A stretch of DNA of 64,000 bases, from the NCBI GenBank assembly GCA_018303855.1, contig JAGVXI010000012.1:2403-66402 (forward strand), written 5' to 3'. Below the pieces are notes generated by a model, which ran no database searches, was not told the origin of the DNA, and saw only the letters and a program-made list of their open reading frames with translations. The stretch is from Candidatus Pacearchaeota archaeon (GTDB taxonomy: Archaea; Nanobdellota; Nanobdellia; Pacearchaeales; GW2011-AR1). Below are positions 36,750 through 54,503 of the stretch, one piece after another; the first letter of the stretch is position 1, and each line of letters opens with the position of its first letter. The position numbers were made by a program, and so were the translations under genes.

Positions 36750-39428
36750 CTACCTTTCTTCTGGTTTTTTAACAGAAGGGCCTTTTGGACTTTGAGGCAT
36801 GATTTTTTTCTTATCTATTCCAAACGGGATAGATGGTCCAGGCATCCAGGTTTTTTTTCCAGAATATTTTTTAATGGCATAACTTATTTGCTCTCCAGAC
36901 CAACCAGCACTTTTTAGTTTTTCTTTAATCTGGCTGTCTGTGAGCCCCCTACTTTTTGCATTGTGTATATATGCAAGTATGTTAAAAAGATCATTTCTGT
37001 TTTTGAATAAATGGCTTTCATACCTTTGCTTATACCATATTTGCATCCCAATATAAGCTACAATCCCAATTAAAATTACTATAGCTAAAATTATAAGGAA
37101 AAGAGCAATAGGAAAAGGAACTGGTTTTGGAGGCTTTATCTCTGTTTCTATTGGCAATTCCTCTAAACTAGGCGAAATAAAAACCGGCAAATCAACAAAA
37201 CTAAAATCTTCTGTTGTAGAAAACATAAGTTTAGTATTGGGATTTTCTAATTCTATATAAGCATAGCCCTCTTTCACTTTTTCTGAATAATACTTATCAA
37301 ATTTTAAATTATCAATGCCTTCAAATATCACAAAAACAGGATAATCAAATGCCTCATTTGCTGACATATCTAACTCAAAAACATTCAGAGCAGGCGTTGA
37401 ATATCCGTCATATTCCGCAGTAAATTCTTCAAATTTTATCTTTGTATCTAAATTCAAGGCATTCCAGCCATAAACAGAGTCAATAGAATTATCTGTATCA
37501 CCGCTAAATTCGCTTCCGCCAATTTCTTCTAATATGTATAAATCAATAATCTCTCTTTCTGGAAAATACGGCAATAGCCCAGTGCTTTTGGTTTTTTGAA
37601 TTGATTCAGGAATATTTAAATTATTTAATTCCAGCATGATTTCAATGTATTTTTGCTCGGTTGCCGCATTTTTATATGCTTGCTGTAAACTTTTTATTTT
37701 ATCTTCTGTTCCAGCTGTATCAAACAAATTTTCCAGGCTTTCTCTAACAAATAAGCTGTAGCCAGTGATATTTAATTTTAAGTTTTCAAGAGCTTTTCTT
37801 TTTTCTTCCAGGGTTGTATTAACTATTTCTTGCGGCGAGCCGACTAAGATACTGAAAGTTTTCAAAGATGTTAAAAGCTCAGCATCTGTAACACTTAATT
37901 TCAATTCATATGTGCCTGTTGAATTATACATGTGGGTGGCTCTATTTATACTGGTTATTTGTTGTGCGCCATCGCCGAATTCCCATTCATATTTAGTAAT
38001 ATTTGTTTCTCCTTTTGTTATATAAGCAACAAATTCAGTTGGATTTCCAGCAGCAGCAGACTGGGGAAGAACTATTCTAATAGTTGGAATTTTCTCAATG
38101 GAGATTTCTTTTAATAATATCTCATCTCCTTTAAACTTTAAAGTGATAGTAGTATTGCCATATTCATTTGGAACAGAAAGGTGTGCCTCATCTAATTTTA
38201 AAATGCCATGATTCCCGCTGATTTTTGCAGCATTCTCGCTTAAGTCATAAATCCTGTCATCAACAATTAATCCCCCGGAAGTTTGCACTCTTGCTGTTAG
38301 ATTAGATAAAGTTATTTCCTGGGATGTTTCAGACACAAATTTTATTGGAATTATGCACCCAGCAGGCGCAGGGCAGTAATTGCTGTATTTTTCAGTTAAA
38401 TAATTGCTCATCTCGCTTGCTAAATTTATTCCATTAGACAATGAATTTTTTATTGTTTTGGCTCCAAATGCCTGGAATTTTTTTGGCTGCATAAAAATAT
38501 TGTAAGCAGCTATTTCTGTCGGGTTTGAATAAGGCAAGCCATAAAATCCGCATGCTGTTGCAGGAGCATCATTCCCCTGTATTCTATAATCCCCTGCTCC
38601 TGTGCTGGAACGGATGCATACATAATAATCTCCTGGTTCAAATAATTGCTTTATATCGCATGAAATTTCTGTTCCGTCTGGACTGGCACTTTGCGTTGGC
38701 AATTCACATCTTGTGCTCGGCAAACTATAGCCTTCTGTATCAAACACTTCCATATACAATTTCGCACTTGATTCAGATATCTTTTTCACCCATGCTCCGA
38801 TTCTAAATCCAGGAGCTTCTGGGAAATTTATTTTTTGGCAATAATAATTAACACCAAGAACATACTCTTTATTGGCTGATGTAAAACAACCTTTGCGTTT
38901 TAAAGAAGAGCATAAGGAATTAGATAAATTTTCGTTTTTAATTTCGAAAGTTTCATCATCAAAAATATCTATTTTTAATTGATTTGTGCAAGATTCTCCT
39001 GCATCACTTTTTATGGTTAGTTCAAATGATTCTACTGCAGAAACATCATTGCCGGTAAATTTTAATCCATAAACTGTAGATTGTCCTGGCAACAAGCTAA
39101 ATGTTTTTGTTGTCTCGCTGTTAGAACCAGCATATGCTGTGCCGCAATCTCCAGGCACACAAGAATAATCATATTCGTCATTTAATTCAAGCAATTTAAT
39201 AAGTGATATATTATCTCTATCATCTATCTGAAAAAGTGAGGTTGCAGGCTCATTGTTAAAACTTATGTTAATCCAACCCCTTAATGCATCATTCGGGGCA
39301 TATTGCTTTTCTATTGAATAATTGCTGACACTAAAGCTGGCTGATAAAACATTAAGGTTGATTAATAATAGGAAGGTTGTTAATAATAATAGCATGTTTA
39401 GTTTATTGTTAAACTTTTTAACTTTCAT
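36750..39428 (-). CDS. large type I membrane surface protein with PKD domain
   Basis: Signal peptide; ~800-aa ectodomain with PKD-like segment (KYEWEFGDGAQ...THMYNSTGTYELKLSVTD); C-terminal TM; ~110-aa K-rich cytoplasmic tail. Confidence 0.7.
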   Translation of the reverse strand: MKVKKFNNKLNMLLLLTTFLLLINLNVLSASFSVSNYSIEKQYAPNDALRGWINISFNNEPATSLFQIDDRDNISLIKLLELNDEYDYSCVPGDCGTAYAGSNSETTKTFSLLPGQSTVYGLKFTGNDVSAVESFELTIKSDAGESCTNQLKIDIFDDETFEIKNENLSNSLCSSLKRKGCFTSANKEYVLGVNYYCQKINFPEAPGFRIGAWVKKISESSAKLYMEVFDTEGYSLPSTRCELPTQSASPDGTEISCDIKQLFEPGDYYVCIRSSTGAGDYRIQGNDAPATACGFYGLPYSNPTEIAAYNIFMQPKKFQAFGAKTIKNSLSNGINLASEMSNYLTEKYSNYCPAPAGCIIPIKFVSETSQEITLSNLTARVQTSGGLIVDDRIYDLSENAAKISGNHGILKLDEAHLSVPNEYGNTTITLKFKGDEILLKEISIEKIPTIRIVLPQSAAAGNPTEFVAYITKGETNITKYEWEFGDGAQQITSINRATHMYNSTGTYELKLSVTDAELLTSLKTFSILVGSPQEIVNTTLEEKRKALENLKLNITGYSLFVRESLENLFDTAGTEDKIKSLQQAYKNAATEQKYIEIMLELNNLNIPESIQKTKSTGLLPYFPEREIIDLYILEEIGGSEFSGDTDNSIDSVYGWNALNLDTKIKFEEFTAEYDGYSTPALNVFELDMSANEAFDYPVFVIFEGIDNLKFDKYYSEKVKEGYAYIELENPNTKLMFSTTEDFSFVDLPVFISPSLEELPIETEIKPPKPVPFPIALFLIILAIVILIGIVAYIGMQIWYKQRYESHLFKNRNDLFNILAYIHNAKSRGLTDSQIKEKLKSAGWSGEQISYAIKKYSGKKTWMPGPSIPFGIDKKKIMPQSPKGPSVKKPEER

Positions 39429-39552: not shown

Positions 39553-41211
39553 TTATCTAAGTAATAATCTTCTTTTAACAATCAGGGAAGTATAAATAAT
39601 TATAAGTATAATGCTTGAAACCAAAAAATTAAACCAGCTGAAAAATCCAAGTTCAAGTGCTCCTTTGCATGGAATTGTCCTGCTTCCGTTAATGCAGGAT
39701 TGACTTTCTTGATTAGGATCATAATGGCAAACGCTTCCATCAGTATTGCAAATAAAATCGTCTTCTTGGCCAACAGGGATATCACTAGCCGTATAACTAT
39801 TTGATACATGCCAATCCCATCTTGCTGTCCAATCATATTTTAAAAAACCATCTGCGCAATTATCATCTGAACGTTTGTCAAATGTGCACTCTCCAACATT
39901 TGGGGAAATTCCCGTAGGGGTATCATCTATATCGGTTTCATAACCATAAACACCTTCACATTTTTCTTCAGCTACTTCCCATTCACACCTGCAATTTACA
40001 AGTTTTATCAATATTCCTTCATAGCTTGGATCATCCTCCCGCGCAATAAACCAATCACTCTCACAATTTCTCTCATCCTCTCTAAAAAAGCTTACAGTTT
40101 CCAAAGCTACTGAATATTCAGGACTAGTTTCATCTACACTATTACAGGTAGTTGGATCTCCATATTTACTGCAAAGAGTATCTGGAACTGATAGGACGCA
40201 TTCATCTGCAACACAATCATATCCGTTTAAGCAGCAAGATCCAATATAATCTGGTCTTTCACAATTAATTGATGCATCGCTTTCAAAAATTCCGTCTGCA
40301 AACCATTGCGGAAATGCTCCGCTTGTATCACATGTGATCACAGGTCCAGGAATTTCAGGTGCTTCTGTTACTATTAATTCTCCTGATTCTAATGTAGCAG
40401 AACCATCAAAATTATTTGTTGTAAAAACATATTCTGGGTCATTTGAAGGTATAACTAGAGGGTTGTCATTTTCCCATAAAGTTGTCCATGTAACAAGTGC
40501 AAACCCTCTGTCAACATCTGTTTGTAGTACAGTATATGAACCGGTTTTAATTAGGTCATCAATTAAAAAATCTCTCTCATAAATTCTATAATTAATTACT
40601 TCACCAACAGACAAATCAATTTCAAATTTCATATTCACCTCAGTTGGTGCTTGCACTGTTGTAACTTGTGTATTTGCATCATTTGCATCTACCCACGAAA
40701 GAGTTTCAGTTGGAGGAACAAAAGTCTGCTTACAGCAGATTTTAGTGGGGTAATCAGCAAATGCACCAACATGTGCATTATCGGGTGAAGACAGGGAAAA
40801 CAATTCTATATACCCATTAGAAATATCACAAGAGTTTGAACTTGCAACACATTCCAAATCTGCAAAACAGATATCTATAGGATAAGTGGTTCTTGCCGGT
40901 TCTTGTGCGTGGGCATTTGTTTGTGCAGATAAACCAACAACCTTATTTGTTCCAGAGCATGTGTGAGGATTTGCTGAGGTGAAATCACAACAGACTGTAT
41001 ATTGGTATGGATTAGGATCATCCCAAGTTTGTGCGTGAGCATTTGTCAAATCTGATAAACCCAAAATAATTTCATTAGTGTTTGTACAAGCACTTCTTTG
41101 TACAATAGAACAGCCGTCAGCACTCACAATCCAAGCTGAGAATATAACCAAGAGTATCCCAAAAACTAAAACCAATAATTCCCTCTTTAATTTCATGAAT
41201 ACTACAGCCAA
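39553..41211 (-). CDS. Cys-rich secreted/anchored surface protein with three internal TNAHAQ-type repeats
   Basis: Signal peptide; repeats LSDLTNAHAQTWDD...CC, LSAQTNAHAQEP...C, LSSPDNAHVGAF...CC; >30 Cys; C-terminal TM. Confidence 0.6.
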   Translation of the reverse strand: MAVVFMKLKRELLVLVFGILLVIFSAWIVSADGCSIVQRSACTNTNEIILGLSDLTNAHAQTWDDPNPYQYTVCCDFTSANPHTCSGTNKVVGLSAQTNAHAQEPARTTYPIDICFADLECVASSNSCDISNGYIELFSLSSPDNAHVGAFADYPTKICCKQTFVPPTETLSWVDANDANTQVTTVQAPTEVNMKFEIDLSVGEVINYRIYERDFLIDDLIKTGSYTVLQTDVDRGFALVTWTTLWENDNPLVIPSNDPEYVFTTNNFDGSATLESGELIVTEAPEIPGPVITCDTSGAFPQWFADGIFESDASINCERPDYIGSCCLNGYDCVADECVLSVPDTLCSKYGDPTTCNSVDETSPEYSVALETVSFFREDERNCESDWFIAREDDPSYEGILIKLVNCRCEWEVAEEKCEGVYGYETDIDDTPTGISPNVGECTFDKRSDDNCADGFLKYDWTARWDWHVSNSYTASDIPVGQEDDFICNTDGSVCHYDPNQESQSCINGSRTIPCKGALELGFFSWFNFLVSSIILIIIYTSLIVKRRLLLR

Positions 41212-41771: not shown

Positions 41772-43190
41772 TTATCCCTTAACAACAACCAAGGGTTTTA
41801 ATCTAGCAACTTTTTTGGATATTCCAAGCTCGTCGACAACCTCAACTACTTCATCAATGTCTTTGTAAGCTTCAGGCGCTTCTTCTGCAAGTGATTTCCA
41901 GCTTCCAGCTTTAACCTCTATACCTATTTTACTTAGACTCTTTTTAATTTCTTCTCCTCTAAAACTCCTTATTGAATCTGCTCTGCTTTTAACCCTTCCT
42001 GCTCCATGAACAGTGCTTGAAAATGTTAATTCTTCTGCTTTTTCTGTTCCGACTAAAATATACGACGCTGTGCCCATGCTTCCTGGAATTAAAACAGGCT
42101 GTCCTACTTGCCTGTACACGTCAGGAATTTCTTTTCTTCCTGCACCAAAACTTCTTGTGGCGCCTTTTCTGTGCACACAAACAATTTGTTTTTTGCCATT
42201 TACAACATGCTCTTCAAATTTCGCAATATTGTGGCAAATATCATATAAAACATCAATTTTTATTTTAGGAAAAAGCTTTTGCATTTCTTCTCTTACCCAA
42301 TGAGTTATAACCTGCTTGTTTGCAAAAGCAAAATTCACAGCACAGCACATTGCTTCATAATAATCCTTACCTAGTTTGCTTTCTATAGGTGCATTTATTA
42401 ATTCCCTATCAGGCAAATCTTTAAAGCCATACTCCTGTTCCATTAGTTTAATGTAATCTGAAGCAACTTGATGCCCTAATCCACGACTTCCGCAGTGAAT
42501 CATTATCACAACCTGCTCTTTTTCCAGTCCAAAAGCTTTTGCTATCTCTTTGTCAAAAATGTCGTCGACAAATTGCACTTCAAGGAAATGATTGCCAGCC
42601 CCTAAAGTTCCAACTTGTCCAATTCCTCTTTTTTTTGCTCTTTCACTTACTTTATCAGGATTTGCATTTTTCATACATCCTTCTTCTTCTGTATGCAGAT
42701 AATCTTCTTTAAACCCAAATCCTTTTTTAACAATATACTGCGCTCCACTTTTTAGCAATTCATCAAGCTCTTTATAAGAAATTTGAAATGTGCTTCCTCT
42801 ACCAACCCCCGAAGGTATTTTTCTATAAAGCGCTTCAACAATTTCTTTTTGTTTTTTTAAAATATCCTGTTTTTTCAAATTAGTTTTTAAAATTCGCACC
42901 GAGCAGTTAATATCGTACCCGACACCGCCAGGGCTTATTATTCCTTTGTCCATATCAAATGCTGCAACCCCACCAATTGGGAATCCGTAGCCTTGATGTG
43001 CATCTGATAATGCAATTGATGCTTTTAAAATGCCAGGCAGCATTGCAACATTTTTCACTTGCTCCAAAGTCTTATCTTTTTTAATCGCATTTAACAGTTT
43101 TTCAGAAGCATAGACTATACCAGGCACATTCATGTTGCCTGTTTTCGGTAGTTCATATGTATTTTTTGATATTTTTTTGAGTTCAGGCAT
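41772..43190 (-). CDS. rtcB: RNA 3'-phosphate ligase RtcB (tRNA-splicing ligase)
   Basis: DAHQGYGFPIGGV, GYDINCSVR, GAGNHFLEVQ, HNIA motifs. Confidence 0.9.
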   Translation of the reverse strand: MPELKKISKNTYELPKTGNMNVPGIVYASEKLLNAIKKDKTLEQVKNVAMLPGILKASIALSDAHQGYGFPIGGVAAFDMDKGIISPGGVGYDINCSVRILKTNLKKQDILKKQKEIVEALYRKIPSGVGRGSTFQISYKELDELLKSGAQYIVKKGFGFKEDYLHTEEEGCMKNANPDKVSERAKKRGIGQVGTLGAGNHFLEVQFVDDIFDKEIAKAFGLEKEQVVIMIHCGSRGLGHQVASDYIKLMEQEYGFKDLPDRELINAPIESKLGKDYYEAMCCAVNFAFANKQVITHWVREEMQKLFPKIKIDVLYDICHNIAKFEEHVVNGKKQIVCVHRKGATRSFGAGRKEIPDVYRQVGQPVLIPGSMGTASYILVGTEKAEELTFSSTVHGAGRVKSRADSIRSFRGEEIKKSLSKIGIEVKAGSWKSLAEEAPEAYKDIDEVVEVVDELGISKKVARLKPLVVVKG

Positions 43191-43454: not shown

Positions 43455-43910
43455 TCAAACATCAACAACAACCTGACAAATCCACTGCTTTTTCTTTTTG
43501 TCATGTTTGACAAACATATCGTTATAGGTTATTGCTTTAACATGTCCTGATAATTCATAATTTTTAACCTTATCGCCGGCAAGTTCAGCCTCAAGCCTAA
43601 ATTTCTCTTTATTAATTTTAATTTTCTTAACTTTATCTAATAAAAATCCTTTAGTCTCCAACACATAAATAACTTCTTCTAAAAAATTATACAATAAGCT
43701 TTCTAAGTCATTCCCGTTTACTTTTATATCAATTCTTTTTAACCCTTTAATCTGGTCATCACATATTATATTCGTTAATGCCAAAGTAGAATTGTCAAAT
43801 GCTTCTTCAAGGCTTTTTCCAAAAGCCTGAAATTTTACATCTGCAGTATGGCTTAAAAATTTGAAGTTTTTTATTTTTGGGGTTTTTTGTCTCATAAATA
43901 AATTAAACAA
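43455..43910 (-). CDS. archease (RtcB activator)
   Basis: FKFLSHTADVKFQAFGKSLEEAF matches the archease N-terminal motif; adjacent to rtcB. Confidence 0.8.
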   Translation of the reverse strand: MFNLFMRQKTPKIKNFKFLSHTADVKFQAFGKSLEEAFDNSTLALTNIICDDQIKGLKRIDIKVNGNDLESLLYNFLEEVIYVLETKGFLLDKVKKIKINKEKFRLEAELAGDKVKNYELSGHVKAITYNDMFVKHDKKKKQWICQVVVDV

Positions 43911-44001
43911 AGAAGTTATATAAACATTTTTAATTATTTAAGTTAGAGTACAGCTCAAAAAAGCATAATGTATTTAAATACTGTTTTCTTTATTTAATAT
44001 A

Positions 44002-44430
44002 ATGGAAAAAAAGAGGCTTAATCTCATAATAGTGGGAATAGGAGTAATTTTTATTTTAGGTTTCTTTGTTTATGCTTACACAGTTAATATACCAAATCCA
44101 GGGCATGGAGGAGATGAAGTTTCAGTTTTTATTTCAGGGCAAACAAAAACATTACAACAATCAATTGACGATGGGAGTTTTGAGAGTGTTGTTTTAGGGT
44201 CACCTGGTTTTAATTGTAATATTAAATATCTTGATGCAAATCAGCCCACAATAATCTGCCCTTCAGATTATCCAGAGTTAGTTGGAGGGGGATGCACATC
44301 TTTTTGGGGTGAAGCTTGGAGAGAATTTTTGCCATCTAAATCAACTGAATCATTTCATTGTAACGACGCTTCAGCAGGAGGAGGTGTTTATACTGCTTGG
44401 GCAATGTGCTGTAAATCTATAACTTCATAA
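44002..44430 (+). CDS. Cys-rich small secreted protein, paralog 1 of a tandem triplet
   Basis: N-terminal TM/signal helix; C-terminal domain with GGGC...W...AMCCK motif shared with the next two genes. Confidence 0.55.
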   Translation: MEKKRLNLIIVGIGVIFILGFFVYAYTVNIPNPGHGGDEVSVFISGQTKTLQQSIDDGSFESVVLGSPGFNCNIKYLDANQPTIICPSDYPELVGGGCTSFWGEAWREFLPSKSTESFHCNDASAGGGVYTAWAMCCKSITS

Positions 44431-44431
44431 A

Positions 44432-44854
44432 ATGAAAACTCAAAATCATTATAAAAGATATTTCAATTTACTAATTGCATTGGCAATGTTAATTATTTTA
44501 ACTTTTGTAGTGGTAGCAGTTTTTGGACATTCTGCAAGTCAAACTTTGGTTAACACACCAAAATGCGGGGAAGTAGATTTGCAATATGCCTTGGATAATA
44601 ATTGTTTTACAACTAAACATCTTGAATGTTCAAGGGTTGCTGGTTCTCTTCAAGAAGCTTCTTTTGTGCCATGTCCTACTGGTACAGTTACTTTAGGAGG
44701 GGGTTGTGTTAGATCTAGCGGAACTAATTGGGATCATATTAGCAGGCCACAAGGAAGGACTGTTAATGGGCAATATTTAGAGGGATGGGCTTGTCAAGTT
44801 ACAGGGGGAAGTGTTACTGCATATGCAATGTGTTGTAGTGTAGTTGGAAATTAA
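44432..44854 (+). CDS. Cys-rich small secreted protein, paralog 2
   Basis: 8 Cys; NNC, GGGC and AMCCS motifs; 1-nt gap to paralog 1. Confidence 0.55.
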   Translation: MKTQNHYKRYFNLLIALAMLIILTFVVVAVFGHSASQTLVNTPKCGEVDLQYALDNNCFTTKHLECSRVAGSLQEASFVPCPTGTVTLGGGCVRSSGTNWDHISRPQGRTVNGQYLEGWACQVTGGSVTAYAMCCSVVGN

Positions 44855-45293
44855 AATGAACAAAAAAATAAATAAATCTTGGGCTAAAAAGACATTTGTT
44901 TTAGTTTTGTCTTTATTTATTATTGTTGCTGCTTCGGTTTTTATTTACTCAGCTGTTCCAGGAGTTTCACATACAAGCGATGAAATATTTTTAGACACTT
45001 CTTCTTGTGGTTCTGTTACTTTAAAGTATGCTATAGATAATAATTGTCTTCCTTCATCTGCTACACTTAATTGTGCTGAGGTTTCTGTTAGGAGTGCTAC
45101 TACAAATACAGCTACTGCTGCATGTAGCGCAGGATATATTGCTGTGAGTGGTGGTTGCGCATCTCCAAATGGAGATAGATGGACAAGACTTTTACCAGAA
45201 GATTTAAATTCTGATGGGATATATGAAAGTTTTGTTTGTTCAAACAATTTAAATGATGTTACAGCAAAAGCAATTTGTTGCAAATTATCTTAG
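44844..45293 (+). CDS. Cys-rich small secreted protein, paralog 3
   Basis: 8 Cys in the same spacing (C..NNC..C..C..GGC..C..CC); overlaps paralog 2 by 11 nt. Confidence 0.55.
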   Translation: MEIKMNKKINKSWAKKTFVLVLSLFIIVAASVFIYSAVPGVSHTSDEIFLDTSSCGSVTLKYAIDNNCLPSSATLNCAEVSVRSATTNTATAACSAGYIAVSGGCASPNGDRWTRLLPEDLNSDGIYESFVCSNNLNDVTAKAICCKLS

Positions 45294-45333: not shown

Positions 45334-45786
45334 TCACCTCACCCAGCAAAACATTTTCAACTGTCTTGGGTTATATACGGTGGAAGTTGCAGTTATCGCA
45401 ATGCTCTCAGCATAAATGTCTTTTCCAAGAGCTTCATTAGGAATAGAATTAAGCTTGCAAAGCGTATCTAACTCGCATATTTTGGCTGCACAATTCAAAT
45501 AATTAGGTATTCTATTGGTGATTTTGTTGATAACATTTGCTGGAACGTTATCATCAGGATTTTCATCTGGGTTATCGGGAATATTTACCCCCAAAACCTC
45601 GTTTCTTAAATTATCATTCAGCTCAATCTCTCTTAACACAGCCCATTCTGCATCTCTCACTTGCCCAGAGATGTCTTTTTTTCCAATATATCCTTTATTC
45701 ATCACTAAAAGCAAAACTCCTGTAATTAGCAATATTGCAACAAACGCTTCAACAATTCTTATCCATCCTCTTTTTCCTTGTAGCAT
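45334..45786 (-). CDS. pilin-like protein with class III-type signal
   Basis: MLQGKRG|WIRIVEAFVAILLITGVLLLV (basic leader, Gly, hydrophobic helix with Glu). Confidence 0.5.
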   Translation of the reverse strand: MLQGKRGWIRIVEAFVAILLITGVLLLVMNKGYIGKKDISGQVRDAEWAVLREIELNDNLRNEVLGVNIPDNPDENPDDNVPANVINKITNRIPNYLNCAAKICELDTLCKLNSIPNEALGKDIYAESIAITATSTVYNPRQLKMFCWVR

Positions 45787-46146
45787 TTTTTGTTTTCTGG
45801 GATTTAAGCAATAATCTTTTCAACTTTGGAATTATTAACCATTTAATCGTAGCCTGCTTTAATTAATTAACTTCAACTTAATTTATGACAACACCACCTT
45901 ATCACATTTATATTATTAGCATTCATTACATTTTATTAATCTAATGCACTAATAATCTCTAACCCCACATCTTTTTTATTAAAAGCAACTCCTACCTCTT
46001 TAATATTTACTAATCTTACCATTTTATTATTAATTATACTATCACCTAAACATTATATAGGTTATACTTTTAATCTTATAGTAACATGCTGGTTTAATAC
46101 CTCTTATTATCAATAAATTTATCAATATTTACTATTTTTTAAATCT

Positions 46147-46980
46147 TCACCAGACTTTTATTGTAAGTGTTCCACTATTTATGCTTGCTATCTGATTGAT
46201 GAACTGAACAGGAATTTCTTTTGAGTAAATACTTGCTCTGGTTTCTTTTTCGGCAGGCTGAACTATTTCGCCAGTTTCTTCATCTGTAAAAATAAAAATA
46301 AATTCAGTATCAGATGGAATATCTAACTGTTGCTTTAAATTGTTATATCCTGCTTCATAAGATGTTTTAAACTCATCAACCTTTGTTTTGAAAGCGTAAT
46401 TGCTTGTTTTTATAAATCCAATAGTATAAGTATTATCACTTAATGGCGTGGTAGCAATATAATTCAGGTTTTTAGTTGATGTGCAACTAACTGCACCTGT
46501 TGGCTCAAAAGGCTCATCAGCATAATCAATTTTAAAAGATACATCAGCAGAACTGCCAGCACTTATAGAACTTTTTAATCCTATTTTTAAATAACTTGTG
46601 GATAGTAAATATGGCTGAATTGTTTCAATTCCTGTAGATGTTTCTATTTGCCTAACAACTATACTCTTTCCCTGAATGCCTGCAATAAAATTTTCTGGTG
46701 AGCCATCAGATAAAAGTGAGATGCAGTCTATACTCATTCCTGTAGGTGGAGGTTCAATGGTAATTTTTGCCTTAATTACCGCATTTGTCAGCTCAGCAGA
46801 AACCGAGCTGATTATCTCTTCTTTTAACAAGTCTAATACTATCTGCTTGTCTTTGTTTAATTTTACTGCTGGCTGTATAGTTGTGTAAATGAAAATTAAA
46901 AATGTTACAAATATGACAAAACTAAGTATTACTCCTACATGTGTGCCGCCTCTTTTTTTTTCAAACATTTTATGCCCCAA
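46147..46980 (-). CDS. pilus-associated membrane-anchored protein (pilin-like N-terminus)
   Basis: MFEKKRGG|THVGVILSFVIFVTFLIFIY then ~240-aa exodomain. Confidence 0.45.
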   Translation of the reverse strand: MGHKMFEKKRGGTHVGVILSFVIFVTFLIFIYTTIQPAVKLNKDKQIVLDLLKEEIISSVSAELTNAVIKAKITIEPPPTGMSIDCISLLSDGSPENFIAGIQGKSIVVRQIETSTGIETIQPYLLSTSYLKIGLKSSISAGSSADVSFKIDYADEPFEPTGAVSCTSTKNLNYIATTPLSDNTYTIGFIKTSNYAFKTKVDEFKTSYEAGYNNLKQQLDIPSDTEFIFIFTDEETGEIVQPAEKETRASIYSKEIPVQFINQIASINSGTLTIKVW

Positions 46981-47824
46981 AAATAATATTTGCTCCTGCA
47001 GAAGTTAAAAATGAGCCAAGCATTAGTATAAAAGAGTGTTTCACGCCTGCTTTAATGCTTTCTTCTGCAAGTTTGCCTATTGCTAGTCCGCTAAAAAAAC
47101 CCTGAACTAAAAGCAAATACAAAAATGAGTTTGAAATCTCTTGCTGGTTTATTCCGCTGCCGCCTCCAACAATTCCGCCTATATCTTCGGTTGTTGTTCC
47201 AACATCAGTTAGCCCAGTCAATAATGGTAAGATTTTAAACTGCATTACTAAGATAATAATCAGGAAAATTATAAAAATGATATAGCCTTGGACAACCAAT
47301 GTTGAAATAATTGCTTTTCTCTCTTTTTTTAAAGCATCTGAAGTAGTAACTGCTCCTGCAACTGCCTCTAGAATCTGTCCAATGTCTCCTCCTGCTTGTT
47401 CTGCCTGCCCAATTAATGTAAGAGCTCGTGAAATTGTATTATTGTTAACATCATTGGCGAATGTTTGTAATGCTTTATTAAGAGGAATTCCCAGTGAAAT
47501 TTGGTTTGCTAATTTCTGCACATTCTCACTCAATACCCCGTAAGATTTGTCTTTTACATTCACAATACTCCTGCTGATTGGTGTGCCTGCTTTGACGCTT
47601 TCAACCAGGTTACGTGCAAATTCCAAGAACATCTCTTCTTTTTCATTGGTTATTTGGGTTTCAATAATAACAGAGATTACAAAAGGCAAAATTCCTATTA
47701 TAACTCCTATCCCGATGATCAATGCAAACCAGTTAGTCCCATAAGCAAAAAAAGAACTGCCTATGATAAGCGCAGCTATTATCACACCGCCCATATGCAC
47801 TGCCTTTATTTCCATTTTATTCAA
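46970..47824 (-). CDS. T2SS-F domain membrane platform protein (TadC/FlaJ-like), smaller of two
   Basis: Polytopic; ...LIGQAEQAGGDIGQILEAVAG... typical of GspF/TadC cytoplasmic loop. Confidence 0.65.
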   Translation of the reverse strand: MNKMEIKAVHMGGVIIAALIIGSSFFAYGTNWFALIIGIGVIIGILPFVISVIIETQITNEKEEMFLEFARNLVESVKAGTPISRSIVNVKDKSYGVLSENVQKLANQISLGIPLNKALQTFANDVNNNTISRALTLIGQAEQAGGDIGQILEAVAGAVTTSDALKKERKAIISTLVVQGYIIFIIFLIIILVMQFKILPLLTGLTDVGTTTEDIGGIVGGGSGINQQEISNSFLYLLLVQGFFSGLAIGKLAEESIKAGVKHSFILMLGSFLTSAGANIIFGA

Positions 47825-47826
47825 AT

Positions 47827-48141
47827 CTATTCAGTAATGATACGTCGTACAATGAATACTAAAGTAAATATTAGCGAAGAGATTATAAAATATTTTCTCC
47901 ATAATTTCATTTCTAACCAAGTAGCTATATAGATAGTGCTTATTGTAGTAAGTAGGTAAAGACCCCCAAGAATAACTAAACTATATGGAGCTGATCTAAT
48001 AAAAAATCCAGTTATGGCTTGAGTCAGAAAAATTGATGCAAAAGCCAATCCTGCAGCTGATATAAATGTAAAATAAAATAGAAAAAATAAATAATCTCTT
48101 TTCTTTATGTAATCTGTATGGTACTCTTTATTTTTTTTCAT
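47827..48141 (-). CDS. small membrane protein (3 TM) between the platform genes
   Basis: 104-aa hydrophobic ORF tightly packed between neighbours. Confidence 0.35.
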   Translation of the reverse strand: MKKNKEYHTDYIKKRDYLFFLFYFTFISAAGLAFASIFLTQAITGFFIRSAPYSLVILGGLYLLTTISTIYIATWLEMKLWRKYFIISSLIFTLVFIVRRIITE

Positions 48142-48142
48142 T

Positions 48143-49495
48143 TTATTTTGATGGCTGTTTTAAATGTAAAAATGTTAGGAAGACAATATTAATAGCTGTA
48201 ACACCCAAAATCATTAGCAAGGTTATCATTTGGTTGCTTAAAGCAATTCCCAAACCGCTAATTTTAATCATCATCAGCAAAAGCATAAAAATCATCGGAG
48301 CAGCAATTACAACGCTGATATAAATGTCCATAAAAGTTTCAGCAGTTCTGGTATATTTTTCCCTCTCAAGCCTGTAATCAAATAAAAGGCTTTGAGCTCT
48401 TTTATCAAAAAAATCCGGCAAATTTCCACCAGAACTTATTGTTGTTGCTATCCCATTAAAAAGTTCAGCCAGTTTTTTGCTTGGGCTGTTCGTTGCATTG
48501 TTTCTTAGAGCACTTACAAGATCATAGCCATAGACATTAATTTCATTTATTAGTTTTGTAAATTCCCTTGTTAAATACGGGTATTCTTCTGTTGAAATAA
48601 TAATGCTGAATATCTTGCTTGGCTCTATCATTGAGCCGGATATTGCTGCCATATGTATTGTTGCAAAAGGCAATTCCTGATCAATTCTGCTTTCATTGGA
48701 CTTTTTTTCAAGCGAAGGATAAACATACATGGATAAGAATGTTAATACTGGTACAGCAAGAATAATCCAAAAAACTTTCAGAAATCTTTCAAATAATGAG
48801 CCAGTTACTTGGGTAATAATTGGAAGTTCTGCAACAATATTAAAGAATAAAAAAAAGATAAACAACAAAAAGCCCGCAAAAAGAGAGATAATTGTGGTCA
48901 GCAGCGTGATAGCAATATAGCTTGTAGGGAGTATGGAAATATTTGCTTTTACCAAATTCCGTTTTAATGCTCTGAACATTTTTTTTTGCATAAGATTTAA
49001 TGAAATTCCTGAAAATAAATTGTTAGCAAATTTGATGTAACTGCTTGGTTTTTTTATTTTCTTTTTTGTTACTTTTTTGCTCTTTTTTCCCAGTCTTTTT
49101 AAAGTAAATCTTTCAAATTCTGTGGTCTTTTTGAAATAATTTCTTGCAGTTAGAAGTGGGTTGATGTTATGCTGGGCCATTGTTCTATGGTTAGCCTGCA
49201 CTCTTTCATATTTTTTTCCTAAATCATTTTCTCCTTTTTCAATGTTTTTTGTCGCTTTATCAAATCCAAAGGTGTCTTTTTGTTCAGAGGATAGTGGTTT
49301 AACCAGCATTATTCTATGCAAAATTTGCAGAATATTCTCATTGGTTTGTTTTAGCTTTTCAAGAAGTAATCTTCCCATTTTTTCGTCTGTCTTTTTTTGA
49401 GAAAGAATGCCTATCTGTTCAACTAAAATTTTTTCCTGGGCAATATGCTGTTGTAGAACTTCAAATGTTTTTAATTCATCTATTCCAGACTTCAT
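48143..49495 (-). CDS. T2SS-F domain membrane platform protein (TadB/FlaJ-like), larger
   Basis: 450 aa, multiple TM, T2SSF-like loop (NGIATTISSGGNLPDFF...). Confidence 0.65.
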   Translation of the reverse strand: MKSGIDELKTFEVLQQHIAQEKILVEQIGILSQKKTDEKMGRLLLEKLKQTNENILQILHRIMLVKPLSSEQKDTFGFDKATKNIEKGENDLGKKYERVQANHRTMAQHNINPLLTARNYFKKTTEFERFTLKRLGKKSKKVTKKKIKKPSSYIKFANNLFSGISLNLMQKKMFRALKRNLVKANISILPTSYIAITLLTTIISLFAGFLLFIFFLFFNIVAELPIITQVTGSLFERFLKVFWIILAVPVLTFLSMYVYPSLEKKSNESRIDQELPFATIHMAAISGSMIEPSKIFSIIISTEEYPYLTREFTKLINEINVYGYDLVSALRNNATNSPSKKLAELFNGIATTISSGGNLPDFFDKRAQSLLFDYRLEREKYTRTAETFMDIYISVVIAAPMIFMLLLMMIKISGLGIALSNQMITLLMILGVTAINIVFLTFLHLKQPSK

Positions 49496-49656
49496 TTTAT
49501 AGCATCAGACATCCTTCTATTAATCTGAAGCATGAATTTTTTTATTTTATTGAACTCTTCGCTATCTTTTTTATAATAAGCTTCTCTAAGTTTTGATTCA
49601 GCCTCATTTAAAGATTCAACTAACTGTTTTAGAAAGACAATATCATCCTCTTTCAT
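49492..49656 (-). CDS. small helical protein (54 aa) translationally coupled to the platform gene
   Basis: ORF below track threshold; its TGA overlaps the ATG of the 48143-49495 gene (ATGA). Confidence 0.3.
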   Translation of the reverse strand: MKEDDIVFLKQLVESLNEAESKLREAYYKKDSEEFNKIKKFMLQINRRMSDAIK

Positions 49657-49814
49657 AGCTAAAAAAGGTTATTTGCATTATTAAATTTAATGGTTTTTGG
49701 GATTAAATTTAATTAACTATCCGCAATAAATTCATTTAATTTGGTTTATAGGTGAATTGTGCTACATAAAATTATGCATTTTGTATATTCCGTAAGCATG
49801 ATAATAATTTGATA

Positions 49815-50023
49815 TGTCAAGAATTGTTTTTTATGCAAACTCCCTACTTTAGTTCGCGAGACTTCAAGATTGTTATTAGGATTGGCAATCTTGACAGCAC
49901 TCAAGAATCTTCGATTCTTGATGGAATAAAAACAATTCTTGAGCACTTCAAGATTCTTTTATAGAATCTTGATAGTCGTCAAAAACAATGTTTTTGAGAT
50001 GCTCAAGAACCAGACACGCCATA
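49815..50023. repeat. MITE-like palindromic repeat, copy B (~210 bp, expanded, lacks right TIR)
   Basis: Shares termini and core with copy A; extra internal palindromes built on TCAAGAAT/ATTCTTGA (e.g. ctcaagaatcttcgattcttgatgg). Confidence 0.5.
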
Positions 50024-50120
50024 AGATAGTTAATAATTGATGCTAGAGATTAAGCTCAATGCAGTTGATAATGCGACATTCAAATTAAAATTGTACTCTA
50101 AAACTAGTTTTTCTATTTAA

Positions 50121-51677
50121 CTATTGCACCCCAAATTTCTGCAAAACTTCTTTAGGCTTTTTATAATATTCATTTATAATCTCCTGCACTTTTTTAAATT
50201 CAAATATTTTTTGCTGATATAACTTGTAAATTATCTGAACTCTTCTTTTAAATTCTAAATCGAGCTCATTCATTGTCAATCCATATCGCTTGGCAATTTT
50301 TTCAAATATCTTGCTGTTTTTTTTGAAATAAAACTGGTCATCTTTTGGGTTCCAAACATAAGGCGTGTTGGTTAATGCAATTCCATCAGGAGTGACATTA
50401 ATAATTTCAACTATTGATTTGAGTTTTCTTGTCTCCTGCTTTTTAACAATTGCATGCGTCATAATACAAACACAATCAAGAACATTCAGCAAAGTTGGAG
50501 ATAAATTAATCGGGGGGGTTTCTAATCTTTTAATAACTGTATCAACTGATTCAGCATGAATAGTGCTTATTGAACTATGCCCAGAAGCCATACCCTGAAA
50601 CAGCACATACGCTTCTTTTCCCCTAACTTCCCCAACAATAACATAATCAGGAGTTTGTCTAAAAGAGCTTTTTAATAATGCAAAAAGGTCAATTTCTCCA
50701 ATATTTCCTAAACCAGTTGCACTCCTGACAACACTTGGAAGCCAGTTTTCCCTTGGCAAATTTAGTTCTCTAGTATCTTCAATTGAAACAACTCTTGCTT
50801 CAGGAGGGATGAAAAATGCAATAGCGTTTAGCAAGGTTGTTTTTCCAGATGCAGTGCCTCCTGTTATAAGGACATTCATTTTATACTGAATTAACAGCCA
50901 TAAATAAGCAAGCATTTCAGGGCTTAATGTATTGAACCCTATTAACCTTGTAGGAGTCCAGGGCGTTTTTGTAAACTTTCTCATCGTAAATGTTGGTCCC
51001 CTGGTTGTTACATCTGTTGTATAAGTAGCATTAACTCTGCTTCCATCAGGCAGGCTTCCATCTAAAATCGGATTTGCATAAGAAATATATTTTCCGCATC
51101 TTTGCGCGAGTTTTTCAACAAAACTTGCGAGGTACTCAGTATCATTAAAAATAACATTTGTCTTGAGGTTCCTGTAAAGTCTATGAACAATGTAAAGGGG
51201 CGTATTTGCCCCATTGCATTCAATGTCTTCAATAAAATAATCTCTTAATAATGGGTCAATTTCATTAAATCCCATAAAATCCCTGCATAAATAATAATAG
51301 ATTTTTCTGTAACTTCCATACGGGATATCAAATCCAAGCTCTATTGCTATAATCTTAAACATTCTATCAATATATTCCAATAAGGCTTCCCTGCTTTTTT
51401 CAACAATGACATTGAAATTAACCATCTCTCTCATAGCAGTTTTTATTTGCTCCAGCACAGCACTTTCATCAGGGGTTAATATTGGTTCTTCAATTTCATA
51501 AAGAACTTCAGAAATCTGAGGATTCCAGTAAATGTGGGCAAATGCAAAGGGGTAAATGAGGTTATATCTTATGTTTATTTTTGTCTTATCCTTGAACTTT
51601 CTCATTGGTTTAATTTCCGGATTAAAATCAATTTCCACCCTCGGATAATTTTGCATGTTTATTTTTTCCTGTTCCAT
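50121..51677 (-). CDS. type IV pilus/archaellum-family assembly ATPase (FlaI/TadA/VirB11-like secretion NTPase)
   Basis: Walker A VLITGGTASGKTT, E-rich box, His box; ~520 aa. Confidence 0.85.
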   Translation of the reverse strand: MEQEKINMQNYPRVEIDFNPEIKPMRKFKDKTKINIRYNLIYPFAFAHIYWNPQISEVLYEIEEPILTPDESAVLEQIKTAMREMVNFNVIVEKSREALLEYIDRMFKIIAIELGFDIPYGSYRKIYYYLCRDFMGFNEIDPLLRDYFIEDIECNGANTPLYIVHRLYRNLKTNVIFNDTEYLASFVEKLAQRCGKYISYANPILDGSLPDGSRVNATYTTDVTTRGPTFTMRKFTKTPWTPTRLIGFNTLSPEMLAYLWLLIQYKMNVLITGGTASGKTTLLNAIAFFIPPEARVVSIEDTRELNLPRENWLPSVVRSATGLGNIGEIDLFALLKSSFRQTPDYVIVGEVRGKEAYVLFQGMASGHSSISTIHAESVDTVIKRLETPPINLSPTLLNVLDCVCIMTHAIVKKQETRKLKSIVEIINVTPDGIALTNTPYVWNPKDDQFYFKKNSKIFEKIAKRYGLTMNELDLEFKRRVQIIYKLYQQKIFEFKKVQEIINEYYKKPKEVLQKFGVQ

Positions 51678-52069
51678 TTTGCCTCTTTTTTGTTTTTATG
51701 CATTATTTAACTTAGCAAATATATAAGCTTTAATATGCTAATCTTAATTCACTTAACATTTAATTGATAGCAGCTGATATATGCGCAACATAGTTAATAT
51801 TGACTTCACAGCCTTTTTACATTAACCAACTCCCACTTCTTTCCATTAGCAACTTTTTTTAATAAATTACCGCCTATTTTTTACTTAATAATCTCTTTTT
51901 TAACAACTTTTTTACTTTAATGATATACCTTAAGTATCCTTATTAACTGATGCTTTTTATCTAATTTGTGTTATTATCTTGTCAGCTTTATCTTACCTGT
52001 TTAACATAACTATTATCATTTAACCCAACAATCGCTCTCTAATATAATAAACTCTGCAATTTTTTAAAT

Positions 52070-52663
52070 TTAACTGACTACATTAATATTGATTTTAATT
52101 GGAGTATCAGCAGGGGCTGATGGTTCTACACCATTATTTTCTAATTTTACTTTGTAGGGAATAGGAGCTTTTGTTATTGTTTTTGCTTCTACTTCTGAAT
52201 TGTCATACTGCAGGTTATATTTGTTTGTATAATCAAGAGTTAAGGTTACATCATAAACTTTGCTTCCTTTTTTTTCTGTAAGAATGTTAATATTCCCATC
52301 CTTAATTGTTCTTCCTGGCTCACTATACATGCTCTTACTTTCACTTAATGTAAAAATTATTGAATCAGAATTACTGTCAAATTTCAAATTTCCTTTTTTT
52401 ATTCCTATCTCAACTATCCTTGTATTTCCTTCTCCCCCTCTGGTAATCTCTGATACAACTGAATCAATATACCTCATAATCTCTATTGTTTGTTCAATTA
52501 CTGCCTGGTCCTGTACTTCTTGTATCTTTGGTTTAACAAATGCCAACGTTGTTCCGATTATAACCAGTCCAATTAGGGTGTAGATAACAGTTTCAACCCA
52601 AATCTGTGCAAGCTTATTCATAGCTTTAAAACCTCTTTTATATTTAATGCAAGAAGAACTCAT
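52070..52663 (-). CDS. pilin-like membrane-anchored protein
   Basis: KRGFKAMNKLAQIWVETVIYTLIGLVIIG N-terminal helix then beta-rich domain. Confidence 0.45.
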   Translation of the reverse strand: MSSSCIKYKRGFKAMNKLAQIWVETVIYTLIGLVIIGTTLAFVKPKIQEVQDQAVIEQTIEIMRYIDSVVSEITRGGEGNTRIVEIGIKKGNLKFDSNSDSIIFTLSESKSMYSEPGRTIKDGNINILTEKKGSKVYDVTLTLDYTNKYNLQYDNSEVEAKTITKAPIPYKVKLENNGVEPSAPADTPIKININVVS

Positions 52664-52696
52664 TTAAATAATTAATTGTTTAGGTTAAATCAAGGC

Positions 52697-53341
52697 TTAA
52701 GAAACAATTATTCCTGCAGCGCATTTTCCTATCTCAGAAGCTATGTCAACAACCCCGCAGTCTTGTCCATCTATGAACGCAGAAAGTTTTACTGATTCTG
52801 GCACATCAGTGAAGCTGAAAAATGGCAGGCTAGTGTCGACAATATATGTTTTTCCAGCATTTTTTCCAGGAAGTTCAAGAGGATTCCCAAAGTTAGTTCC
52901 TGCCCCTGAATTTTTAATAAAAATGGCAGATTGTCCATCAATTAATTCAAATCCTTTTGAATTTCCTTTTGACATAATAGAAACTCCAAATTTCTCAACT
53001 TCTATATTTTCAACATTTATTGAAACCTGAGTCATATCATTATATGTTCCATCACTCTGGTTCTGCCAGCAGGTATAAACTTTGTTTAACTTTATTTTAT
53101 CAAAAATATCTGAACAAGTTCCTGCCTGTTCTAAATTTCCTTTAATCATCTGGTTTATTACTGTCCAAATTATCCCTATTGCTACAACAACCAAAGTGAT
53201 TAGAATTAAAACGCTAATAACTCCTGATAAACCTTTTTTATCACAAAGTCCTTGTGTGTTTTTGTTTGGACTTTGTGGGACAGAAAACAAAAGACAATTG
53301 CTATGCAATTTGTTTTCTGTATAAACTGTTTTTTTGCCCAT
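52697..53341 (-). CDS. archaeal type IV pilin (class III signal, long leader)
   Basis: ...DKKG|LSGVISVLILITLVVVAIGIIW; start taken at Met15 (track ORF extends to 53383 and overlaps the upstream pilin gene). Confidence 0.55.
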   Translation of the reverse strand: MGKKTVYTENKLHSNCLLFSVPQSPNKNTQGLCDKKGLSGVISVLILITLVVVAIGIIWTVINQMIKGNLEQAGTCSDIFDKIKLNKVYTCWQNQSDGTYNDMTQVSINVENIEVEKFGVSIMSKGNSKGFELIDGQSAIFIKNSGAGTNFGNPLELPGKNAGKTYIVDTSLPFFSFTDVPESVKLSAFIDGQDCGVVDIASEIGKCAAGIIVS

Positions 53342-53342
53342 T

Positions 53343-53819
53343 TTACAACTCTTTTTCAACACCTGTTCGAGCATCGCAAACATAAGCAGTTTTTCCGTCT
53401 TCAGAACTTCCTAATAAAACAGGAATTATTAAAATCCTGTTAGCGTCTGTAAGTACCAGAGATATATCATCAGATGTCCAGCTTCCGCCTTGCCTTAATC
53501 CTCCTGCAGGCCAACTACTATCCAAATCTCTTATATCCTGCTCAGAATAATCCCCTCCCTCGTAAATTCTTATTTTTAATCCATAAAGAGGGGTATTTCC
53601 GTTAACTATACTCAACTTTCCGTTTGTATAAGTTACAGTAAAGCTTATGTCATCTTCGCAAACAAGTGCTATATTCTTTTCAAATTTTGTAACTGGTGTT
53701 TTAATTGTCATTCTAAACCATAAGAAAATGATCAATGCAATTGCCACAACTATTGCAATCAACAAAACAGTTGCAATAACAGGCGAAAGTCCCCTTTTCT
53801 TATTTATTCTTTTAAGCAT
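53343..53819 (-). CDS. archaeal type IV pilin (class III signal peptide)
   Basis: MLKRINKKRG|LSPVIATVLLIAIVVAIALIIF, the archaeal pilin N-terminal consensus (G-LSPVIATVLLIAI). Confidence 0.7.
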   Translation of the reverse strand: MLKRINKKRGLSPVIATVLLIAIVVAIALIIFLWFRMTIKTPVTKFEKNIALVCEDDISFTVTYTNGKLSIVNGNTPLYGLKIRIYEGGDYSEQDIRDLDSSWPAGGLRQGGSWTSDDISLVLTDANRILIIPVLLGSSEDGKTAYVCDARTGVEKEL

Positions 53820-53966
53820 TTTTATCTTTTTGTTAATATTTAAATCTGATTTATATTTATTAATCTTAATCTGTTTATGATGGTTAATCTGGTATTAGGC
53901 TTTTTACAATTAAAACTTTTTTGATTTTATTCTATTATATCAAGTTTACTTAGTTTTAAAATCTTT

Positions 53967-54503
53967 TTATATTGTAGCGCAGGTTATTTCTTCTTTTATT
54001 TTTCCTTCATCACAAGAAACAATCCTCTCAACTCTTTTTTCATCTATCTGGACTTTTGCTGGAATAATCTCAATTGAATGGATTGTTTGTGGGGCACCAG
54101 TTTCATCTACAACAAGAGCCATATTTATCTCTTTTTCTGCAGATTCTCTACCTGGTTTTAACAAACCTCCTCCAAATGAAACATATCCTGGATTTTGAGG
54201 TTGTACTATATTAACTAAATCAAAAGTTGCTGTTTCTTGATTAGGCTCAATTGTTGCTCTAATAAAATAACCATCAATATCGAATCTCCCGTTATTTTTT
54301 AGTTTGAAGATTAATTGATTCCCACTGCATTCAATCTGCGTCAGCATTAAAGAAGTTCCTTCAGGGCATTTTTGCATTCCTTCTCGTGGAATATTGACTT
54401 TTAAAAATTGATAGACTATTAAACTCATAACAACAGCAATGCTGATTAGTAGTATATAACTAATCATAATGCTTATCCCTTTTTTATTTTTCCTATTTAT
54501 CAT
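53967..54503 (-). CDS. archaeal type IV pilin-like protein
   Basis: MINRKNKKG|ISIMISYILLISIAVVMSLIVY. Confidence 0.6.
   Translation of the reverse strand: MINRKNKKGISIMISYILLISIAVVMSLIVYQFLKVNIPREGMQKCPEGTSLMLTQIECSGNQLIFKLKNNGRFDIDGYFIRATIEPNQETATFDLVNIVQPQNPGYVSFGGGLLKPGRESAEKEINMALVVDETGAPQTIHSIEIIPAKVQIDEKRVERIVSCDEGKIKEEITCATI

Follow-up and report, generated by a model that had tools for sequence, protein, structure and literature searches.

To our knowledge, the fold shared by resistin, the V-domain of PCSK9 and the APCβ domain is known to function in threes only, and all three groups are normally treated as eukaryotic inventions. Resistin reaches this number as a homotrimer, PCSK9 and APCβ by repeating the unit three times in tandem within one chain of pseudo-threefold symmetry. 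Resistin and its RELM relatives are marked by an invariant set of 10 to 11 cysteines ending in CC-x(3-6)-end, and in the resistin structure 1RFX the first cysteine of the head and the cysteine of the CP motif pair with two C-terminal cysteines. The resistin chain starts with a signal sequence, continues with a variable middle part and closes with a disulfide-rich β-sandwich head at its C terminus; the protein forms trimers (PMC8253364). APCβ, a β-prism that binds membranes, consists of three repeats of ~80 residues, each with two conserved disulfides (PMC5943054). It has been classed with the PCSK9 V-domain, both being double-layered β-prisms whose symmetry is pseudo-threefold and whose disulfides are structurally conserved (PMC6294395). 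Here we describe three adjacent, co-directional genes of a Candidatus Pacearchaeota archaeon whose C-terminal modules can be assigned to this fold on the basis of a predicted structure and of sequence profiles. They lie at 44002-45293 (+ strand) of a 64,000-nucleotide (nt) stretch of contig JAGVXI010000012.1, which we call the window; all coordinates below are window positions, and relatives and loci are designated by P and L numbers.

The three open reading frames (ORFs) on our ORF list encode proteins of 142, 140 and 145 amino acids (aa), termed W1, W2 and W3. W1 (44002..44430; 6 cysteines) is identified from the ORF list and from paralogy and is called in public assemblies too. W2 (44432..44854; 8 cysteines) starts after a 1-nt gap, and W3 (44856..45293; 8 cysteines) is 145 aa long from its ATG, as it is in public gene calls, and is P0002 among the representative proteins searched below. 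An earlier sequence-only reading of this stretch had described three small paralogs, the first two separated by 1 nt and the last two overlapping by 11 nt. BLASTP confirmed the paralogy (pairwise E = 6e-6, 7e-20 and 5e-10 at 26-30% identity), and the gap between W1 and W2 stands. The overlap, by contrast, depends on an alternative TTG start at 44844, from which W3 would be 149 aa long. Because the ATG at 44856, one base past the W2 stop, reproduces the spacing of W1 and W2 and is the start used in public calls, the overlap is probably an artefact of ORF listing; W3 most likely starts at this ATG, with 1-nt gaps throughout the triplet. The DNA of 44002-45293 is identical, with zero differences, in three independent Rifle-type aquifer metagenome assemblies. 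Profile searches of all six frames found no further copy of the triplet in the window.

All three proteins share one layout, in which an N-terminal transmembrane-type helix is followed by a 33-aa N-module and a cysteine-rich C-module of 76-80 aa, with the consensus L-x-C…CPxGYxxxGGGC…P…W-x-C…tAYAiCC-K. The C-module is encoded at 44200..44427 in W1 (residues 67-142, ending in CCKSITS; C-module profile E = 4e-34), at 44612..44851 in W2 (residues 61-140, an all-β head with cysteines 66, 81, 92, 121, 134 and 135) and at 45057..45290 in W3 (residues 68-145, ending in AICCKLS; C-module profile E = 6e-38), always on the + strand. The C-terminal segments YTAWAMCCK, VTAYAMCCS and VTAKAICCK read as previously quoted. 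Two further motifs that had been called common to the triplet are shared by two proteins each: NNC is found in W2 and W3, and W1 has DDGSF instead, is missing the cysteine pair and so has 6 cysteines rather than 8; GGGC is found in W1 and W2, and W3 has SGGC.

We searched the Protein Data Bank (PDB) by Foldseek with an AlphaFold2 (AF2) model of W2 (m14893a1e379a), for which a 22-sequence alignment was used and the mean predicted local distance difference test score (pLDDT) is 87.8. Resistin (1rfx_A) ranked first, with a probability of 1.0, a target-normalised template modelling (TM) score of 0.50 and E = 0.024. Next in the list were ~25 chains of the PCSK9 C-terminal domain (probability ~1.0, root mean square deviation ~3.2 Å, ~79 columns, 19-26% identity), which span the whole C-module of W2 in the superposition, and the APCβ domain of P. 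vivax PLP1 stood lower. The title of a PCSK9 entry in the PDB, 2qtw, itself names "structural homology to Resistin". Residues 27-260 of P0041, a natural three-repeat relative, were modelled at pLDDT 93 and a predicted TM score (pTM) of 0.90; this model aligns with the full PCSK9 C-terminal domain (7anq_A; TM 0.62/0.65, E = 4e-8) and with the APCβ domain of TgPLP1 (5ouo; E = 1e-7).

Since the E-values of the single-module Foldseek search are weak, independent support for the fold was sought at the profile level. An hhalign comparison of 22 archaeal C-modules with the heads of mouse resistin and RELMβ gave a probability of 75% and E = 2.6e-5 over 60 columns, end to end, and paired LNC, CP, W, the cysteine of W-x-C and the terminal CCK between the two groups. 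For W3, the aligned positions were LNC, the cysteine of the CP position (CS against the CP of resistin), W and CCKL. When a profile of 50 C-modules was compared with PDB sequences, the top three matches were all APCβ entries of PvPLP1 and TgPLP1 (7pln, E = 0.0011; 5ouo, 0.031; 6d7a, 0.049), with the motif CPxGxxvvGG matched in each of the three repeats; a profile of three sequences retrieved noise alone. Scanned singly against Pfam, 7 of the 50 C-modules matched PCSK9_C3 (best E = 1.8e-6) and 3 matched Resistin, PF06954 (best E = 0.031), and the full-length relative checked, P0045, reached 22.2 bits, under the cut-off of 26.7. Matches of W1-W3 to UL45 and StfA (E ~0.02-0.05) were rejected as noise, and a search of viral folds in BFVD returned weak matches (E of at least 6e-3), many of them to tail-fibre or receptor-binding proteins, to which we attach no evidential use.

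On the combined grounds of the fold search, the profile-profile match to resistin and the weak Pfam and PDB sequence matches, the C-module can be assigned, as a prediction from model and sequence, to one subunit of the double-layered β-prism known from resistin, the PCSK9 V-domain and APCβ; the proteins had previously been left without a family. The fold family itself is known already. The archaeal proteins carry hypothetical annotation alone and fall under every Pfam and NCBIfam threshold, and a limited literature search found no papers on archaeal or bacterial resistin-like proteins, which is absence of evidence.

The cysteines vary within this common plan. Four of them, in CP, GGGC, W-x-C and YA-x-C, are kept across 87 modules and probably correspond to the two disulfides conserved in the modules of APCβ and PCSK9. 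The small proteins from archaea have, in addition, an upstream cysteine, in L-x-C, and a second cysteine at the end, forming CC. Both additions are present in 21 of the 87 modules, neither in 56, and 10 are discordant (Fisher p = 2e-11). This co-occurrence in the sequences indicates a third disulfide, between L-x-C and the second cysteine of CC, which would tie the start of the module to its end. For the remaining cysteines we predict that the one in CP bonds with the first of CC, the one in GGGC with that in W-x-C, and Cys45 with Cys58. The C…NNC cysteines of the N-module, present in W2 and W3, also behave as a pair: W1 is without both.

Resistin and RELM (FIZZ; PF06954; 1rfx, 1rh7) resemble W1-W3 in overall plan, with a hydrophobic leader, a variable middle, a six-stranded, disulfide-rich β-sandwich head of ~60-80 aa, one module per chain and a terminal CC followed by few residues (CC-x(2-5)-end in W1-W3). 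However, W1-W3 have six core cysteines, the 8 of W2 and W3 including the N-module pair, and the C-x-C pairs of resistin are absent. The archaeal neck is an N-module, modelled in W2 as a β-hairpin and helix, whereas that of resistin is a parallel coiled coil; the archaeal N terminus looks like an anchor and not like a cleaved signal, the head is acidic and not cationic, and the host is an archaeon and not a vertebrate. With the Cys/His-rich V-domain of PCSK9 (PCSK9_C1-C3) the likeness lies in the module fold, in the match of P0041 to the whole domain and in the weak PCSK9_C3 matches of relatives. Yet in PCSK9 a subtilase precedes three modules within the same chain, and W1-W3 have one module per chain, encoded in three genes, with neither a His-rich surface nor a protease. 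APCβ (5ouo, 6d7a, 7pln) shares the ~80-residue repeats, the two conserved disulfides, which join inner and outer sheets, the assembly in threes and the CPxGxxvvGG motif common to its three repeats, and protist relatives combine MACPF with three modules. Unlike the archaeal proteins, APCβ is a single-chain pseudo-trimer on a pore-forming domain that binds membranes by a Trp-tipped loop; W1-W3 are single-module proteins without MACPF and with the predicted third disulfide.

A profile that we built from the ectodomains of W1-W3 and ran over 1.84 billion representative proteins gave 90 hits at E ≤ 1e-3, and mapping of their domains showed the two modules to be separable. A word-indexed homolog search returned the query protein alone, an alignment-based search 12 proteins and a metagenome search with W3 alone no relatives; scanning genomes for DNA encoding the PNPGHGGD pattern yielded mostly chance matches in GC (guanine-plus-cytosine)-rich bacteria and 7 useful archaeal loci. 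Among the 90 hits, carriers of the C-module have either one copy, in small archaeal proteins and a few longer ones, or mostly three tandem copies, rarely four. The single-copy group includes ~25 small proteins from archaea, 126-161 aa long, that share the architecture of W1-W3 (alignment A3), and at least 18 proteins carry three tandem C-modules, against one each in W1-W3. In bacterial- or protist-looking proteins, the tandem modules follow a trypsin-like protease (P0025, P0033), MACPF (P0028) or ricin-B (P0035). The combination of MACPF with three modules was confirmed by Pfam in P0028 and is suggested by sequence similarity in P0075, P0079 and P0080; these four look like APCβ-type perforin-like proteins, and their modules, like those of P0025, P0033 and P0035, are without a Pfam family at threshold. 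A possible origin of P0023 in a bacterium of the Candidate Phyla Radiation, with RelA and QueA nearby, was rejected, as archaeal small-subunit (SSU) and large-subunit (LSU) rRNA genes stand beside the P0023 gene.

The N-module shows a similar copy-number pattern, occurring once in small proteins and as three tandem copies in many longer proteins with a DPANN-style N terminus (P0008, P0010-P0016 and others). It also precedes C-terminal domains unlike the resistin-type head, including RCC1-like repeats and cysteine-rich regions. Its consensus, drawn from 50 modules of ~33 aa (alignment A8), is xIPNPGHGGDxVxVxxNGxxKTLQQAIDDGxF. In the triplet it is encoded at 44086..44187 (+) in W1 (residues 29-62, NIPNPGHGGDEVSVFISGQTKTLQQSIDDGSFES; N-module profile E = 9e-21), at 44525..44611 (+) in W2 (residues 32-60; E = 3e-17), where there is an extra Cys45/Cys58 pair, and at 44955..45056 (+) in W3 (residues 34-67; E = 2e-18), where the alignment shows an extra SSCG…NNC cysteine pair. 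DSSP analysis of the AF2 model describes the W2 module as a β-hairpin plus short helix (strands 39-42 and 46-49, helix 50-55). No Pfam family matched the N-module, and its profile found chance matches alone among PDB sequences (NDM-1, a copper ATPase). Judged from its sequence, this 33-aa segment is a neck module not described before.

In front of the N-module, each protein has a hydrophobic stretch of ~21 residues preceded by a few basic residues, with a Kyte-Doolittle 19-aa mean of 2.6-3.2. It covers residues 6-26 in W1, after KKR (44017..44079, +; mean 2.58), residues 11-31 in W2 (44462..44524, +; mean 3.24) and residues 13-33 in W3 (44892..44954, +; mean 2.64); that of W1 could be a signal-anchor or a long signal peptide. 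Residues 6-31 of W2 form a helix in the AF2 model, with pLDDT up to 97, and the hydrophobic segment expected of the signal or anchor helix proposed before is borne out in each protein. Given the basic-then-hydrophobic N terminus and the paired cysteines, W1-W3 are probably extracytoplasmic, which agrees with the idea of small cysteine-rich proteins outside the cytoplasm; their cysteines are probably disulfide-bonded. Most N termini of the family open with M-x-Φ-x-Φ-x-Φ-x-K-[KR] right before the transmembrane helix (alignment A3; L027, L080, L081, L097), as in MKFEVNVEKRY and MVTIEIKKNT, and often have A-Y-[ST] at the helix end. This motif, which is weak in W1-W3, may be a recognition or topology signal. 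No N-glycosylation sequons were found in the ectodomains of W1-W3.

We propose that W1-W3 are membrane-anchored, probably trimeric, putative surface binding proteins of a DPANN archaeon and not pilus subunits, a reading to which we give an even chance. Each protein would be of type II topology (N-in, C-out), anchored in the membrane at the cell surface, with the parts arranged outward as transmembrane-type helix, 33-aa neck and disulfide-locked β-sandwich head of 76-80 aa. A trimer would consist of three transmembrane helices, a trimeric neck of N-modules and a trimeric head, and the head would present a ligand- or membrane-binding surface. Trimerization of the single-module proteins is suggested by analogy, because the fold is known in threes only and because a chain has either one copy or three of each module. 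That relatives append the three-module unit to a protease, a pore-former or a lectin suggests a function in targeting or binding and not in catalysis. The proteins would probably serve to contact the surface of a host or a substrate, together with the type IV pilus and large Cys-rich/PKD surface proteins encoded nearby; of the roles proposed earlier, surface binding or adhesion is the most plausible reading.

Several observations weigh against this proposal. The single-module Foldseek E-value is weak, and so is the hhalign probability taken alone; W1-W3 themselves had no usable match in Pfam, NCBIfam or PHROG, and none to Pfam Resistin at E ≤ 1. There are possible V-x-A or S-A cleavage sites, and the N-terminal helix may be either an anchor or a cleaved signal. 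The ectodomains are acidic, with pI values of 4.4, 6.3 and 4.5 and net charges from -1 to -7.5, whereas the resistin head is cationic, so the membrane-permeabilising mechanism of the cationic RELM proteins cannot simply be transferred. The number of gene copies per locus varies among relatives between 1, 2 and 3, from which it follows that three genes are not needed for function. The family is represented by a tandem pair with a 1-nt gap in L135, a divergent pair in L004 and a single gene in L010, L132, L133, L134 and L011 (in L011 the next downstream gene is a weak profile match).

Copy number also bears on a more specific arrangement, in which the three genes, translationally coupled, encode W1, W2 and W3 as the different subunits of one heterotrimeric β-prism, comparable in naturally "split" form to the pseudo-trimers of PCSK9 and APCβ and to the homotrimer that resistin forms. 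The prism would then be fixed on the membrane by its three transmembrane helices and by a neck of three N-modules, as an episymbiont's device for binding the host membrane or host surface. This arrangement would account for exactly three tightly coupled genes, and positions 38-1499 of L129, an unrelated metagenome contig, do contain another three small N-module genes in tandem (126, 168 and 146 aa). The three C-terminal domains of L129 differ, however, and other loci have pairs or singletons; as copy number is free to vary, singletons would be homo-oligomeric, if oligomeric at all. We consider a heterotrimer unlikely. In L129, the third gene alone (P0017) encodes a clear resistin-like head, and the first ends in AYLCCR after a short cysteine-rich segment.

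The genes lie next to a complete type IV pilus-like locus (45334-55183, all on the - strand), at the head of which they had been placed. They in fact converge on the 3' end of this operon, with a 40-nt spacer. The locus encodes a FlaI-type ATPase (50121-51677, -; NCBIfam E = 2e-117) and two FlaJ/T2SSF halves (48143-49495 and 46970-47824, -), which flank the gene of a 104-aa transmembrane protein. Its pilin-like genes number at least six, and in five of them a [KR]-G class III signal is clear. The pilin-like genes at 52697-55183 (-) carry class III signals (among them KRG/LSPVIATVLL, KKG/ISIMISY, KKG/QFYLIAA and KKG/LSGVISVL, the slash marking the predicted cleavage), and two further pilin-like genes occupy the 3' part (45334-46980, -). 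Like archaeal type IV pilins, W1-W3 have a hydrophobic N-terminal helix followed by a β-rich domain, and members of the family stand beside or inside pilus loci in some genomes. If they were canonical minor pilins, the helix would act as a class III signal for processing by prepilin peptidase, and the proteins would become part of the fibre. This is very improbable: the [KR]-[GA] motif carried by the pilin genes of the locus is absent in all three, W1 (MEKKRLNLIIVG), W2 (HYKRYFNLLIAL) and W3 (WAKKTFVLVLSL) having no G or A at the cleavage position; no significant pilin fold appeared among the Foldseek matches of W2; the triplet is on the strand opposite to the operon; and in the family the same N terminus and N-module are followed by C-terminal domains of quite unlike kinds, RCC1-like repeats and large cysteine-rich regions among them. 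As far as motif and predicted fold can tell, W1-W3 are not pilins, and the suggestion that they form the pilus tip fails in the pilin sense.

A live rival, and the closest viable form of that suggestion, is that they are accessory proteins or adhesins of the pilus without being pilins, Sec-exported, relieved of the N-terminal helix and docked on the tip or shaft of the adjacent type IV pilus. Bacterial PilY1-type adhesins bind the pilus in this manner, without being pilins. Besides the 40 nt that separate the triplet from the last pilin-like gene, this idea draws on two other genomes. On L134, a 615-kb Woesearchaeota contig, P0060 is embedded co-directionally in a pilus operon. There, T2SSE and two T2SSF genes precede four small genes of pilin type, of which three have clear class III signals; P0060 starts 18 nt after the fourth of these and is followed by a 63-aa transmembrane protein, an 806-aa cysteine-rich MopE-like protein and two pilin-like genes. 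In L114, where the ATPase is 75% identical to that of the window, a three-N-module protein is encoded between pilin genes, namely the homologs of 53967-54503 and 53343-53819. Co-occurrence with pilus genes, which had been proposed as a check in related genomes, does recur, yet it is not obligate. Near the pilus ATPase are two of the seven contexts of genes with both modules (the window and L134), where chance would give only a few percent in a ~1-Mb genome (by our own rough binomial estimate, p ~0.04), whereas the other five (L004, L011, L132, L133 and L135) have no T2SSE or T2SSF in flanks of ~4-10 kb. N-module genes are at least as often found beside archease/RtcB, the opposite orientation of the window triplet again fits poorly, and the ~21-residue hydrophobic segment resembles an anchor more than a cleaved signal. 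We regard a pilus accessory as a doubtful explanation.

Still less likely, in our view, are soluble effectors, released after cleavage of the signal as resistin-like trimers that act on host or competitor membranes. The fold is that of resistin/RELM and APCβ; RELMβ and resistin permeabilise bacterial membranes (PMC8253364), and APCβ, which targets perforin-like proteins, binds membranes through a hydrophobic loop (PMC5943054). The fusion of tandem-repeat relatives to MACPF or protease domains points the same way. Against release speak the long hydrophobic N terminus and the N-terminal motif conserved across the family, which suggest retention in the membrane, and W1-W3 are without an effector domain and have acidic ectodomains, unlike the cationic host-defence proteins. 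The membrane-anchored, probably trimeric surface binding protein is thus the reading that we favour.

The surroundings of the triplet include further genes. Upstream, it is divergent from archease (43455-43910) and RtcB (41772-43190). A TATA-like box, ATTTAAAT (43972..43979, +), read from the sequence ~23 nt 5' of the first ATG, lies inside the 91-nt divergent spacer common to W1 and the archease gene and, from general knowledge of archaeal promoters, suggests that the triplet has its own promoter and a leaderless or near-leaderless mRNA; W1-W3 would then be one short operon. A scan of the window for bacterial-type promoters and terminators was uninformative for archaeal DNA. N-module genes adjoin archease/RtcB in four DPANN loci (the window at 43455-44002, L027, L051 and L092), and their C-terminal domains differ. 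A functional link to archease/RtcB was rejected; because other members adjoin unrelated housekeeping genes, the adjacency was judged lineage synteny, and it may stem from conserved synteny or from a divergent promoter region that the genes share.

Farther upstream, a 552-aa cysteine-rich protein (39553-41211, -), with three NAH[AV] repeats, a C-terminal hydrophobic tail and no Pfam match, adjoins an 892-aa PKD-domain protein (36750-39428, -). Homologs of one or both are found near N-module genes in L007, L081, L109 and L134, and this grouping looks like a recurrent surface-protein neighbourhood. In our reading of the gene contexts, the family probably belongs to a loosely clustered surface gene set that is often, but not always, accompanied by a pilus locus. 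At the upstream edge of the pilus locus, a 409-aa DDE transposase (55621-56850, -) matches Pfam IS66 (E = 2e-10) and IS240 (E = 1.5e-8) and has zinc-ribbon/SWIM-like N-terminal motifs. An archaeal rRNA operon occupies window positions 1-3290 (-): the SSU rRNA gene spans 1888-3290, a tRNA gene sits in the spacer at 1453-1523, and the LSU gene, truncated by the window edge, contributes its 5' part (1-1014). This operon explains why the first 4 kb are richer in GC. The operon and the identity of W2 with a protein named by NCBI as Candidatus Pacearchaeota archaeon uphold the view that the host is a DPANN archaeon.

The locus and its ~90 relatives indicate that the β-prism module is widespread, occurring in DPANN archaea and in bacterial- or protist-looking tandem-repeat proteins. 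Such a spread would extend the history of the fold much further back and would make targeting or binding, exerted in threes, its general role, and the locus links the fold of a mammalian hormone, PCSK9 and an apicomplexan membrane-binding domain to putative surface proteins of prokaryotes. What is new is the β-prism subunit encoded by separate genes for predicted membrane-anchored proteins, together with an N-module unmatched by Pfam or any solved structure. The series that runs from a single gene through pairs or triplets to three tandem repeats offers a natural system for the transition from homotrimer to pseudo-trimer. For DPANN biology, these findings point to a family of small, probably anchored surface proteins and to a new N-module bearing many heads, which are candidates for contact with the host.

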